The notes: generated by a model from the letters alone, not told the origin. A stretch of DNA of 50,551 nucleotides, filler included, from Catajapyx aquilonaris (GCA_000934665.2; 2 parts of 2 records of this genome joined end to end with filler, not necessarily neighbours in it); one strand, 5' to 3'; positions 18,398 to 24,105 are shown, counted from the first letter of the whole stretch. Made by a program: numbers and translations.

Positions 18398-19557
18398 CTA
18401 TAGCTCAGGTGTTGGTGGTGTCTTGATCGCAGTGTTGTATGAAGGTGGACGGTCATCTTGCTCTGCGTCAATCAAAGGCACAGGCGCTATTTCGACAGGT
18501 GTGGTCAGCAGATGACCCTGCTGGGTCATCGGCTCCTGGGTTTGGGGAAGGTTGTCATCCAGCACGTTGCCTCTGCATAGTTCCCGCTCAACATAGTCCA
18601 CAAACGCTTTCCGTTTGGCCACGAAGAACAGCAAGGCCAAGAGGGTAAAACACACTGAAAGGTACAATAGGAGGTACACTAGTATCTTACTCATCTCATA
18701 GATGGCGCATCCTCCCTATTTGCACACTACTGCCAACCGAGTGCGCACCCACACTCGCGCAGTTCTGACAACAACGTTGCCAGAGCCCATCAGATAATGC
18801 TTCATTCTCCTAGGAAGTAGCAGAGGAGAGCAATCTGATTGGCTGACCGTTCCTAACGTAAGTAGGAACGGTCAGCCAATTAGAATGCTCTATTCTCCTA
18901 GAAAGTAACAGCGGAAATCAATCTTATTGGCTGACCGTTAACGGAAGTAGGAATGGTCAGCCAATCAGAATCCTCTATTCTCCTAGAAAGTAGCAGCGGA
19001 AAGCAATCTGGCTGATCTGGCAATCTGGCTGATCGTTCCTACTTCCGTTAGGACCGTCAGCGTGTAAATAGGGGCATAAAAATAATATCCACACCCGTCG
19101 CCTCTGAGGTTATTCTTTCCAGATCCTTAGCAACGTTGCAAACGTCAGCCATATTGCCCCCCTCAGTGTAGCGTTGGAAATAAGTGCATACTCACTATAT
19201 GCAGGGATAATGCCAACAGTGCGCGCTGCGCAAACTGTGGTGCGCGCTCGGTTGCGTTCATTTAAAAATCATCTATAGTGGTACTACATTGATGACTCAC
19301 CCCGGACAAACATAGGTAGGCTAACATACTGAAGTTTATATGTACAAACCTCCTAATCCAATGAGAGCGAAGGACAACTCTGATGGGTACAGATGTTCAG
19401 TGTTGGTATAAAACATCAGGATTAATCCGGGCAGGTACGTCATGAATGCAAACGCTGCTGACACGTACATTAGCACCATCTGCACATAAATGTGGACATG
19501 TCATTGTTACTTCAGTAAAAATTATACGGGACTTACCATAAGCTTGTACTTTTCCAT
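18398..19557 (-). CDS. Two-TM PPxY-tail protein, paralog 1 (135 aa)
   Basis: Exons 19557-19537 (21 nt), 19479-19350 (130), 18654-18398 (257), GT-AG, in frame: MEKYKLM MVLMYVSAAFAFMTYLPGLILMFYTNTEHLYPSELSFALIGLG VCFTLLALLFFVAKRKAF...DDRPPSYNTAIKTPPTPEL. Confidence 0.85.
18810..19062. repeat. Tandem palindromic repeat in intron 2 of paralog 1
   Basis: About 3 copies of a hairpin unit attggctgaccgtt...ggaacggtcagccaat separated by ctattctcctagaaagta. Confidence 0.75.
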
Positions 19558-19769
19558 GGTTGACTGTGGACCGTCGCACCCAGTGTGTAATGTGGAAAAA
19601 TAGCTTTGTCGATATCTATGTCTTCATTTTATCGGTACTTGCCGGTAAAGTACACTAAACTGCAGTCTTATCGCGGTGAAGCGAAGGTTAGGAAGCGGAT
19701 AAAAAATTGTGCGGACATCGAGGCGGCATCATTGGCGTAAAAATAATAATCACTTATTAGGTGACAACA

Positions 19770-20724
19770 TTATGGTGATCCCATCACTGATTCGTACGAC
19801 GGTGGGCTGTCGTCTGGTTTTGCAAATACGTCAGAAAGTTCAATCACTGCAGGGCCAGTGACGTTACAGGTTGACGGTTCCTCTTGACGTCGTCGGTTTA
19901 GCTCAAATATGGCTAACGACGATGCAAAGCAAGCAGCTGGAAAGTGGTACAAATGGGTTCACACGGTTGTCGTTGAGTCGCTGTCGTTGATGTTCACTAA
20001 TCAGCGCTTCGTCGTTTGCGCTGATTGGTGAACGTGAACGACAATGTGCCAGGTCCACAAGGGTGTTGTTGTCGTTGAGTGGCTGGTCGTTGACATTCAC
20101 CAATCAGCACAATGAAACGGGACTGATTGGTGGATACAAACCACAACGACTCAACGACAACAACGCCAGTGTGAACATGTCAAAAAATTGTCTATAAACA
20201 CAATTAGTACTGAATGAAGAGAATATCACTTACCTCCTACTCCGAATAAGATGCAGTAGGCCAACTTTGAAGTGAACGTATGACTTGTGTATGAGTTAGC
20301 TAGGAAGTATGAACCTAATGCGAAACTAGTCACGGCCAACACCAATCCTACACTCGCCAATATGAGCTTGCGAAAAAAAAACAAATACACAGGGTGTTTC
20401 ATAATGATTCAGACAAACTTATGGACACGGAGTAATTTCGTCACGAAACTTTGCAATTTTAATTCATATTGGGCTTCAATTAGGTACAGCAGGCAGTCCA
20501 CGAAGCGATAGAAGTGTCGTAGGCTGTATCCGAGACTTAGGCTACACATTTTTCGATTAATGGGTATAACGAGGCTGCGGAAACCCCAAGTAATATTTTT
20601 CACAGAAAGTGTCCAGAAGGTTTGAATCATTACAAAACAGACTGCGCACACTAAGTGAGTTTTAAACGGCACCCTACCCCCCCCCCCCCANCCAAAGCAC
20701 ACTTACTCTCAACTTGTCATTCAT
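19770..20724 (-). CDS. Two-TM PPxY-tail protein, paralog 2 (105 aa)
   Basis: Exons 20724-20707 (18 nt), 20366-20234 (133), 19936-19770 (167): MNDKLR LILASVGLVLAVTSFALGSYFLANSYTSHTFTSKLAYCILFGVG AACFASSLAIFELNRRRQEE...KPDDSPPSYESVMGSP. Confidence 0.82.
19957..20176. mobile_element. MITE-like inverted-repeat element in intron 2 of paralog 2
   Basis: Ends gttcacac / gtgtgaac, with subterminal ttgtcgttgagtcg / cgactcaacgacaa inverted repeats. Confidence 0.6.
20390..20644. mobile_element. Tc1/mariner-type MITE remnant in intron 1 of paralog 2
   Basis: Imperfect TIRs cagggtgtttcataatgattcagac..ttatggacac / gtgtccagaaggtttgaatcattacaaaacagactg. Confidence 0.55.
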
Positions 20725-21515
20725 CCTGAGAATTGTTCGACCAACATTGCAGGGTCCAACGAACTATAAGAAGTTATTAGGTGCAATGTGGACTGGTGGC
20801 AAAATGAGTATGCCTGAACTCTTATCGGTTATCAAAAAAGAATATACACATTACGTCATGATTTGTTATTCGTGGATCGAAATCTTTTCCTCATGATTCA
20901 TAAAATTTTATCTGATATTATGGAGGTTTCGCTAAAAATGGTTGGATTTCACTTCACACATTTTTTGAAGTGACTCATTAAAGTGACTTACTTTAGCAGC
21001 GATAAACGAGCCATAAAAGCAATTTATTGAGGAATATCATTATTAGATTTAATAACCAGTTTTACCTAACTGTACAAAAGTAACTGTATGTTTAAAAATT
21101 AACAGCTTAATGTCAAAATACCTAACCACCCAACACTTCAACACACAGTAGCTTATATCAGATGTCTTAATTACTGCTTAATTATTTATTAATGAAGGGT
21201 TGAAGTCAAATGATTATAATTACTACTTAGTTTCAAAATTTTACATTGTCGTCATTGTCCATTATGACGTCATTGTTATTCTTTGATTGACCGAACCAGG
21301 GAGCATATACTACATAAGAGGAGCAAACTTCTGTCGGCGCCTTTGATGTTCGCGTCTCTCTGTTTGGGGCCGTTGCCAAGGCTGGCGGCCATCTTGAAGT
21401 GTGGGGAACGCCAACGAGGTATAAATAGGGTACAGGCAAAAATAGGGTCCCCATCTTTGATGGTTTTGGCGGCCATGGCAACTGCACGGCAAGAACACGC
21501 GTGATTTTCACTTAC

Positions 21516-21725
21516 CTCCGATTCCGAACAAGATGTAGAAGGTGAGCTTCGGAGGTTCTGTACGGATATTGTTGGAGCCAAACAGGACGAAACCTATGGT
21601 GAAACACGTGACTGCCACCACCAACAATACGGTCGCCAACTTCACCTTTTGAAAGAGTGTAGCAGCAGACAAATATAACAATATTTTGTTGCACTCAAAC
21701 TTACTCGCAAATTGTTGTGCATCAT
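21516..21725 (-). CDS. Two-TM PPxY family paralog 3: exons 1-2 only (no private tail exon found)
   Basis: Exons 21725-21705 (21 nt) and 21645-21516 (130), both with GTAAGT donors: MMHNNLR VKLATVLLVVAVTCFTIGFVLFGSNNIRTEPPKLTFYILFGIG(G). Same sizes and phases as the siblings; no exon-3 homolog seen in 20730-21510. Confidence 0.75.
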
Positions 21726-22316: not shown

Positions 22317-22575
22317 TAGTAACTATAGGAAAGTAAAGCAAATTACAGTGTTAATGCCACAAAAATTCGTTAATTGAAACGACCTTGTATTTTTAATCGT
22401 GTTACAGTACAATGCTTGTATATTTAAAATTACGAATACAAATTTGAAAAGTATGTCACACAAAAAGCGACTAATTCACTAAAATTCAAATACAAATTTG
22501 TATGATATGAATACAAAACCCAAATTTATGTACACACTTTGGCAAATTCATATCCTCAGTTTTTTTAAAAAAAAT

Positions 22576-23123
22576 TTATTGCGCGTTACTAGGAGGAGAT
22601 GTTCTTGTCGCAGTTTCATACGATGGTGGTTTGTCGTTGGGTTTCGGAGCTGAATATTCCGAATATTCCGGAGGAGGCACCATCCCGGACACAGGTTGGA
22701 TGACCGACATCTGACCTCTGGTCATCGGCTGGGGAAATCCGTAATGAGGGCTGCGCATGTTGTGAACTATGTTGACAGTGCATGCCAGCTGCTCTAGGAA
22801 GGCTCGTCGTTTCAGCTCGAAAAATATTACGGACAATACTGTGCAACTGACTGGAAATTAATTTTTTAAATATTATTAAAAAATAGTGTAATATAATGGT
22901 AAAATTTACCTCCGATTCCAATGACGTAAAATGCAAGTTTTGGCGGATAGTAGTCGCGAATGTTCGCGTTAAACACAAGCCCAAATCCGATCATGTAACA
23001 GACCATTGCTGCAACCATGCTCAGGTACTGCCACACCATCTGTCAATTACGGAACAATCATTTTGATAAAGTACAGTACTTCAATTACAATAAAAAACTT
23101 ACCATAACTCTGTACTTCTCCAT
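22576..23123 (-). CDS. Two-TM PPxY-tail protein, paralog 4 (141 aa)
   Basis: Exons 23123-23103 (21 nt), 23039-22910 (130), 22850-22576 (275): MEKYRVM MVWQYLSMVAAMVCYMIGFGLVFNANIRDYYPPKLAFYVIGIG VSCTVLSVIFFELKRRAF...PPPEYSEY...DKPPSYETATRTSPPSNAQ. Two PPxY motifs. Confidence 0.87.
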
Positions 23124-23590
23124 CTTGGTTTGCAAAGTATTGCTGCACTGAAGGAGACAATGGCGATACTGGTCGATAGCTTGTCACCTTTTTATCTTCA
23201 GGACGTGACGTAGGCTACTGTACATACATCGACTGCATTGTTATCAGACGGAGGGTAAAAAAAAAATATAGTGTACATGGTGCGGGAAAATCCGATGTGT
23301 ACATAAGATAAATGGAAGATCACAAGGTGGTTTTTTTTGAAGAACTGACCAGTGACCACTAGAAATGACATTAACTCTACACTTTCAATGGTTGTATAAT
23401 TTGAACTCTATGCAGTGAAAAAGTCTTGGCACAAAATAATGTGTGTAAATCAGTTTTATTCAATACATGCAACGCTGCTTAATAATAACTTAAAGCACAT
23501 ATTATAATATCAGTTTTCAAAGCCATGTGTCGCATAATGGTTAGGCACAATTTGTATTCAATAAAAAAATAGTCTCCGATGTTATTATTG

Positions 23591-24105
23591 TCATTGTTGT
23601 GTATGTGAAGCATTTACCACACTCTCATAAGAAGGTGGTAAGTCAAACTCCGGAGGACCAGTCTCGGCCATCAGCATCACTTCTCCATTGAAGACATGGA
23701 TAGACGTCACATTCTGGTCCGGACGACCTCTACGTTGTCTATTCGCACTTTGTTTTGTCAGTCGGGCACGTCTCTTCATTTCGTAAAAAAATATGGACAA
23801 GAAGGAGAGACTCACTGAAATAGACGTTAACAAGTGTGTAACTGTAAACCCCGAATTTTTTTGTTTAAAAAAAAGTGCTTGCCTGCTGCCGCTGCTAGAA
23901 AATGCATGCTTTTTTGGTACGAAAGGTTTTCTATGATGTCGTAGAACAGTATGGACACAAGTGCAAGGTAACATACTATGGCAAGGGATACCGACATACC
24001 CAAAGATATACTCTGGAAGTTTAAAAAAACAACATTCTATTTAGCACAGCTTGACACGAAATTAAAGTCATGAGAGTAACTTACCCATGCTAAGTACTTA
24101 TCCAT
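23591..24105 (-). CDS. Two-TM PPxY-tail protein, paralog 5 (124 aa; GC-AG intron 2)
   Basis: Exons 24105-24085 (21 nt), 24012-23883 (130, donor CAG|GCAAGC), 23814-23591 (224): MDKYLAW SISLGMSVSLAIVCYLALVSILFYDIIENLSYQKSMHFLAAAA VSLSFLSIFFYEMKRRAR...PPEFDLPPSYESVVNASHTQQ. Confidence 0.8.

Follow-up and report, generated by a model that had tools for sequence, protein, structure and literature searches.

The 50,551-nucleotide stretch of Catajapyx aquilonaris DNA analyzed here (GCA_000934665.2; parts of two records joined with filler; hereafter the window) harbors a cluster of five related genes, U1 to U5, which all lie on the minus strand within positions 18398-24105 and start in a micro exon of 18 to 21 nucleotides (nt). 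The complete copies encode small proteins with two hydrophobic segments, a basic cluster and a C-terminal tail, in which the motif D-x-P-P-S-Y is kept by purifying selection on the protein. By analogy with better known proteins of similar design, we read the family as putative membrane-anchored docking sites for ubiquitin ligases of the Nedd4 (HECT) family, which would be bound via a PPxY (PY) motif in a cytoplasmic tail. We give this reading a probability of roughly one half.

Results

Gene structure and transcript support

An earlier note on this DNA had described five minus-strand units sharing a micro exon, a second exon and, in four of them, a tail exon, and the units were indeed found in this arrangement at the positions given below. 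The ATG-bearing first exon measures 21 nt (18 nt in U4) and ends in phase 0; the second exon measures 130 nt (133 nt in U4) and ends in phase 1 in 5/5 units (exon 1/exon 2 lengths from U1 to U5: 21/130, 21/130, 21/130, 18/133 and 21/130). A tail exon, 167-275 nt long and running through to the stop codon, follows in U1, U2, U4 and U5. Donors are GT in eight of the nine introns and GC in the remaining one (U1 intron 2), acceptors are AG throughout, and four of the five start codons have an A at position -3. All 14 exons are open and their splice sites intact.

24085-24105, minus: U1 exon 1; ATG plus six codons (MDKY...); joined to 24012 in a spliced contig
23883-24012, minus: U1 exon 2; 130 nt with helix 1, loop and first half of helix 2; GC donor; a contig joins 23883 to 23814
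23591-23814, minus: U1 tail exon; remainder of helix 2, then FYEMKRR, tail and stop; DLPPSY at 23644-23627; contig 23814-23441
23103-23123, minus: U2 exon 1; MEKYRVM
22910-23039, minus: U2 exon 2; 130 nt; leave-one-out E 1.5e-13
22576-22850, minus: U2 tail exon; FFELKRR; PPEY at 22674-22663; DKPPSY at 22635-22618; unspliced contig 22783-22384
21705-21725, minus: U3 exon 1; MMHNNLR
21516-21645, minus: U3 exon 2; 130 nt; donor GTAAGT; lacks its own tail exon
20707-20724, minus: U4 exon 1; 18 nt; MNDKLR
20234-20366, minus: U4 exon 2; 133 nt
19770-19936, minus: U4 tail exon; FELNRRR; DSPPSY at 19811-19794; possibly used by U3 too
19537-19557, minus: U5 exon 1; MEKYKLM; 5' untranslated region (UTR) at least to 19686; contig 19686-19537 joined to 19479
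19350-19479, minus: U5 exon 2; 130 nt; a contig joins 19350 to 18654
18398-18654, minus: U5 tail exon; FVAKRK; DRPPSY at 18454-18437; contig from 18654 through 18300 and beyond

Contigs of one public run (X1) reproduce all four predicted junctions of U1 and U5 exactly. In U5, position 19537 is joined to 19479 and 19350 to 18654, with 19536-19480 and 19349-18655 skipped; in U1, 24085 is joined to 24012 and 23883 to 23814, with 24084-24013 and 23882-23815 skipped. The skipped introns end GT..AG on the minus strand, except for U1 intron 2 (23815-23882, minus), a 68-nt GC-AG intron whose non-canonical donor is confirmed by the spliced contig. Since the joints are intron-exact and intergenic bins show zero depth in the run, we infer that the contigs derive from cDNA and that the splicing of U1 and U5 follows the prediction. 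For these two genes, the junctions that the earlier note had asked to see confirmed agree with spliced contigs, and the genes are real and spliced as read from the genomic sequence. The 3' part of the U2 tail exon is covered by one X1 contig without a junction; U3, U4 and the U2 head have no contigs, which is uninformative on their expression. X1 is a single run whose kind is not on record (no run recorded as RNA was found).

Several smaller features lie in or near the units. The contig-covered 5' UTR of U5 contains an upstream open reading frame of three codons at 19630-19619 (minus; ATG AAG ACA TAG). On the opposite strand, an open frame at 18012-18224 (plus), ending at 18224, may be the terminal exon of a convergent gene, and the U5 contig extends about 480 nt past 18300, such that the 3' ends of both genes may overlap. 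In U5 intron 2, 18796-19050 is taken up by direct and inverted repeats, nested and 25-71 nt long, whose cores are GATTGGCTGACCG-like, and a second set of inverted repeats lies at 19966-20182 in U4 intron 2; both look like small foldback or MITE-like (miniature inverted-repeat transposable element) insertions. Just past the covered 3' end of U2, at 22054-22350, a tandem array of 27-nt units spans about 300 nt (eight overlapping 108-nt copies at 27-nt spacing). Between U3 and U4, the interval 21293-21450 shows a very high summed X1 depth (bin value 115, local peak 406) from ten contigs in several variants and is probably a dispersed, transcribed repeat.

Relationship of the units

The units are related beyond chance. 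When every six-frame piece of the window (2545 in all) was scanned with an exon-2 and a tail profile, exactly five heads and four tails emerged, at expectation values (E) of 1e-20 to 1e-34, the next best piece reaching E 0.024 with the exon-2 profile and E 2 with the tail profile. With leave-one-out tail profiles the omitted tail was recovered in 4/4 cases (4e-12, 6e-7, 1e-4 and 1e-4), and the corresponding exon-2 profiles recovered U2 (1.5e-13), U5 (6.9e-8), U3 (1.1e-7) and U4 (5e-3).

The heads of U3 and U4 form the closest pair (synonymous differences, pS, 0.60; non-synonymous differences, pN, 0.32). They represent a tandem DNA duplicate 1.28 kb apart, and a 77% alignment still extends over the exon-2 end including the donor (repeat families D4 and D5). 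The tail profile found no tail exon for U3 before U4 among all six-frame pieces of the window, despite the open frame and intact splice sites of U3. The phase of U3 exon 2 fits the tail exon of U4; U3 may therefore use that exon or may be a partial, dead copy. In a more speculative scenario, the U3 head would be spliced to the U4 tail, and the cluster would be a set of modular ligase adaptors invented in the arthropod lineage, with variable heads and a constant PY tail. Each head (micro exon plus hairpin exon, with its own promoter) would use its helices and loop to recognize a membrane client of its own, and the tail exon would provide all heads with the same docking site for Nedd4-family ligases. 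New client specificities would then arise by duplication of heads only, on a small scale much as in gene clusters with variable first exons. We regard this extended scenario as unlikely.

Protein architecture and predicted membrane topology

The spliced products comprise 124 (U1), 141 (U2), 105 (U4) and 135 (U5) amino acids (aa), and the tail-less U3 comprises 50 aa. Two 19-residue windows with mean Kyte-Doolittle values of 1.7-2.7, spaced by 11-19 residues, were found in each of the four complete proteins, which bears out the previous description of two hydrophobic segments joined by a short loop. Exons 2 and 3 meet within helix 2, where a small-x-small site (G-I-G, G-V-G, G-L-G or A-A-A) is conserved. 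The 15 residues following helix 2 hold three to five lysines or arginines (K/R) and the loop zero to two; the basic motifs FYEMKRR, FFELKRR, FELNRRR and FVAKRK are present as described before. Because the positive charge follows helix 2, the positive-inside rule predicts a cytoplasmic tail, in agreement with the location claimed earlier. Together with the short, K/R-containing N-terminus this makes an N-in/C-in helical hairpin, with a short cytoplasmic N-terminus and an outer or luminal loop, the most likely topology.

The first hydrophobic segment begins at residue 5-12, directly behind the K/R-containing N-terminus, a position that would also suit a signal peptide. If helix 1 were cleaved or otherwise removed, the products would be type I microproteins with an ectodomain of 10-20 aa, the same PY tail and unchanged ligase docking; the nearest neighbors of the tails in a language-model comparison, MLANA, TMEM52 and VOPP1 (scores below 0.9, hence leads only), are single-pass proteins as well. 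The segment is, however, uncharged over the entire scored window, and 19 uncharged residues are longer than a typical signal-peptide core. It also carries conserved positions specific to the family, namely an invariant Ala and a C/S/T-[YF] pair. A single-pass architecture is thus unlikely in our judgement, and the hairpin is preferred.

Conservation of the PPSY motif

The alignment of the four tails contains six invariant columns: one Arg of the basic cluster and the residues D, P, P, S and Y. Five of the six fall in a single stretch of six residues, D-x-P-P-S-Y, which lies 7-13 residues from the C-terminus in 4/4 tails and is followed by [EN]-[ST]-[VA]. The D-x-PPSY ending reported before is hence present in every tail, and the additional PPEY is present too, in U2. 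In terms of membership in the class-I WW ligands, all four tails carry [LP]PxY in a probably non-globular stretch that is cytoplasmic as judged from charge.

Between copies, pS reaches 0.6-0.93 in heads and linkers, i.e. synonymous sites are saturated, and the paralogues consequently are old duplicates. Against this background the codons for D, P, P, S and Y show silent differences only, at P (CCT/CCA/CCG), S (TCT/TCG/TCA) and Y (TAT/TAC), and pN is 0.19-0.29 in the 9-codon motif block versus 0.48-0.66 in the linker. Because the motif is invariant, with silent changes in its P, S and Y codons amid saturated synonymous sites, D-x-PPSY is kept by purifying selection on the protein and not by recent copying. 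The characterization of the family as rapidly diverging was not shown: with saturated pS and old copies no rate can be estimated, and the suggested comparison of non-synonymous to synonymous rates (dN/dS) between loop and tail is uninformative for the same reason.

These observations bear on two further scenarios. The units could be decaying or non-functional open reading frames with noise transcripts, as the head-without-tail structure of U3 and the lack of relatives elsewhere (searches with single-exon queries) might suggest. Against this, 14/14 exons have remained open with intact splice sites despite synonymous saturation, the motif is invariant in spite of silent variation, and spliced contigs exist for two units, all of which makes decay highly improbable. 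Alternatively, the tyrosine block could be a sorting or phosphorylation signal (adaptor-binding of the YxxPhi type, or phosphotyrosine) and not a WW ligand. The sequence Y-E-S-V following PPS in U1 and U4 does fit Y-x-x-hydrophobic; U2 (Y-E-T-A) and U5 (Y-N-T-A), however, have Ala at the hydrophobic position, and the invariant two prolines and Asp before the Tyr are not needed by YxxPhi. Such a signal as the sole role of the block is very unlikely, and a WW ligand remains the preferred interpretation.

Homology searches

All homology queries were single-exon pieces, each covering only part of the hairpin because an intron splits helix 2; hence the lack of relatives is weak evidence. In word-indexed searches of 5.8 billion protein clusters the U2 tail yielded no candidate and the tail alignment 23 candidates, none at E up to 1; the exon-2 alignment, compared with longer proteins of the same collection, yielded 4319 candidates, none at E up to 10. 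An exhaustive hmmsearch of 1.84 billion representatives with the tail profile gave no hit at E up to 0.001. In Pfam, the four tails matched no family at E up to 1, and the five exon-2 pieces, at E up to 10, matched only Ost5, Tmemb_170, Srab and LapA_dom, each with one of the five members (E 0.011-0.16). PDB sequences returned a single chance match (E 0.96). The earlier note had not recognized the family, and no described family was matched in these Pfam, PDB, cluster and profile searches; the assignment to no known family is provisional, the queries all being single exons. The label "lineage-specific" draws on searches with the same pieces and should be read with the same reserve.

Metagenome contigs gave 96 pattern matches and one tblastn match; the latter has only ...FDRPPSY... 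in common with the tails, has no hydrophobic head (head profile E 0.83) and was rejected as a chance motif match. Six pattern matches in viral contigs gave no confirmed relative, and a viral origin is unlikely because the genes carry introns. Language-model neighbors of two tails, all scoring below 0.9 and therefore leads only, were MLANA, TMEM52, VOPP1, a Shisa5_N-bearing cluster (40% of its members) and unnamed arthropod clusters of 100-146 aa; these are membrane proteins of eukaryotes, small and with a cytoplasmic tail, and include known binders of Nedd4-type ligases.

Other features of the window

The window is animal DNA of arthropod type, with short GT-AG introns, an MRJP/yellow gene, a sugar transporter, p115/Uso1 exons and a Mutator-like (MULE) transposase. 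The single-exon MRJP/yellow-family open reading frame at 25469-26932 (plus; Pfam E 9.5e-68) lies in divergent orientation to U1 and has an N-terminal signal-like and a C-terminal hydrophobic segment. A long open frame of the MULE/ZSWIM transposase type (474 aa) at 45871-47295 (minus) is followed by a 243-aa frame at 45251-45982 (minus); the frames within 45251-47295 may be a Mutator-like element, either intact or domesticated. Inside the U1-U5 cluster, scans for Rfam families and tRNAs gave no match. Elsewhere they found two inverted tRNA-Trp(CCA) genes about 250 nt apart, at 9904-9976 (plus) and 10230-10301 (minus), with 68 bits each in Rfam and in a very AT-rich stretch (GC content 0.25), as well as a tRNA-Ser(GCT) at 49568-49639 (plus).

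Discussion

Proposed function

PPxY is a ligand of class-I WW domains, and the closest designs known (Sna3, Comm/PRRG4, the PPSY of Notch, and Melan-A) are partners of ubiquitin ligases; on these grounds we favor the docking of Nedd4-family HECT ligases. In the proposed mechanism, the helical hairpin would insert in the membrane and the basic cluster would keep the C-terminus on the cytoplasmic side. The tail, probably disordered and drifting freely elsewhere in its sequence, would display one selected, extended PY motif, D-x-P-P-S-Y-[EN]-[ST]-[VA], onto which the class-I WW domains of Nedd4-family HECT ligases (arthropod Nedd4, Su(dx), Smurf) could dock. A docked ligase would thereby be brought to the membrane bearing the hairpin, where it would ubiquitinate the hairpin protein itself and direct it to the endosomal/lysosomal route; possibly it would also ubiquitinate membrane proteins bound to the two helices. 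Gene structure, the splicing of U1 and U5, the two hydrophobic segments, the charge distribution and the selection on the motif are shown by the data, whereas topology, WW binding, the identity of the ligase and any cargo are inferred. Ligase adaptors for other membrane proteins and merely self-sorting cargo would look alike at the level of sequence, and a choice of clients by helices and loop is plausible as a working hypothesis.

The earlier interpretation of the family as ubiquitin-ligase adaptors or receptors has partial support: the genes are real, the tail is cytoplasmic by charge, PPSY is under selection and no described family was matched by the single-exon queries. Rapid divergence is not shown, and ligase binding, an adaptor role and a choice of cargo by the helices and loop are putative.

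The same motif would also allow a different reader. Class-I WW domains of many proteins bind PPxY, and selection on the motif is silent as to which of them is used, such that the tail could dock a non-HECT WW protein (Yorkie/YAP, Kibra or a dystrophin-type WW domain) and tether or sequester signaling proteins with no role in ubiquitination. On the other side, small membrane proteins that combine a membrane-proximal basic cluster with a C-terminal PY motif are ligase partners in the cases considered here (Sna3, Comm, PRRG4, CYYR1, Melan-A), and the window contains no pointer to Hippo signaling. We consider a non-HECT reader unlikely.

Several points weigh against the ligase-docking interpretation. 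PPxY is common, being carried by 11.7% of human proteins (PMC8509885). Because the motif alone is so common, the case rests on conservation among the four paralogues, which all belong to one genome, and the searches with single-exon queries returned no orthologue from another species. The transcripts come from one run of unrecorded kind, the cDNA nature of which was deduced from the contigs. The topology argument is statistical, since charged residues also occur in the loops of U2 (+2/-1) and U1 (+1/-2). Cleavage of helix 1 as a signal peptide is an alternative, which would still leave the tail cytoplasmic. The head of U1 was not recovered by the leave-one-out exon-2 profile of the other four (E 0.32), and its membership hence rests on exon plan, position and tail, not on head sequence. 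Finally, U3 has no tail and therefore no PY motif.

Which channels, transporters and receptors Nedd4-type ligases remove from membranes is decided by small membrane proteins with PY motifs; the known examples (Ndfip, Comm, Sna3, CYYR1) are few, mutually unrelated and mostly chance finds. Genes such as U1-U5 are overlooked by gene finders because the start codon sits in an exon of 18-21 nt, which hides them from annotation based on open reading frames. With four natural helix/loop variants on one conserved docking motif, the cluster offers a convenient set for questions of client choice. Should the motif not bind a ligase, a real, transcribed set of unannotated membrane microproteins would still be left.

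Comparison with known systems

Ndfip1 and Ndfip2 are small polytopic membrane proteins whose PY motifs are described as recruiting and activating Nedd4-family ligases towards other membrane proteins. They have three helices and PY motifs in the N-terminal cytoplasmic part, whereas the proteins described here have two hydrophobic windows, a C-terminal PY motif and no Pfam match.

In layout, the yeast protein Sna3 (Pmp3/Sna family) comes close: its two transmembrane domains are accompanied by a cytoplasmic PPAY at the C-terminus, which binds Rsp5 and is required for endosomal/multivesicular body sorting (PMC2171029). The small size, the two helices and the C-terminal PY, predicted to be cytoplasmic, recur in our family. 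In contrast, the same text describes a plant and fungal family, and no Pmp3/Sna profile match across the helices was obtained, the exon-2 pieces showing no consistent Pfam family and the tails none at all. The resemblance is one of analogous design, not of membership.

MLANA, TMEM52, VOPP1 and the Shisa5_N cluster resemble two of the tails in language-model features (0.77-0.88; below 0.9, leads only). For MLANA (PF14991) and TMEM52 (PF14979), with language-model scores of 0.82-0.88, neither profile matched any of the four tails at E up to 1. MLANA, TMEM52, VOPP1 and CYYR1 have one helix, unlike our proteins, and Shisa-like proteins have a Cys-rich ectodomain, which is absent here. Melan-A is reported to be ubiquitylated by NEDD4/ITCH (PMC9604169); CYYR1, likewise described as a partner of NEDD4-family ligases, is not itself among the tail neighbors.

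The identical tetrapeptide, in an arthropod, is found in Drosophila Notch, whose PPSY is bound directly by the WW domains of Su(dx)/Nedd4 (PMC2444042); the motif of Notch, however, is situated inside a large receptor and not in a dedicated small protein. In the short membrane proteins Comm and PRRG4, acidic and hydrophobic residues come after an extended LPSY; Nedd4 is bound through this motif, outside of which conservation is "remarkably low" (PMC5578492). A conserved motif in a drifting tail is also what we find, and PPSY-E-[ST]-[VA] has a similar layout. Comm and PRRG4 differ from our proteins in their greater length, their one transmembrane domain and LPSY in place of PPSY as key motif; against the Commissureless definition of one helix and a GLPSYDEAL-type motif (same source), the units have two hydrophobic segments, PPSY and no Pfam match.

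As a functional kind, small PY-tailed membrane proteins are well known. New here would be the hairpin version in an animal, the micro exon start and the possible head-only duplication, and the cluster would add to the known systems an animal family of apparently unrelated sequence with a Sna3-like hairpin layout.

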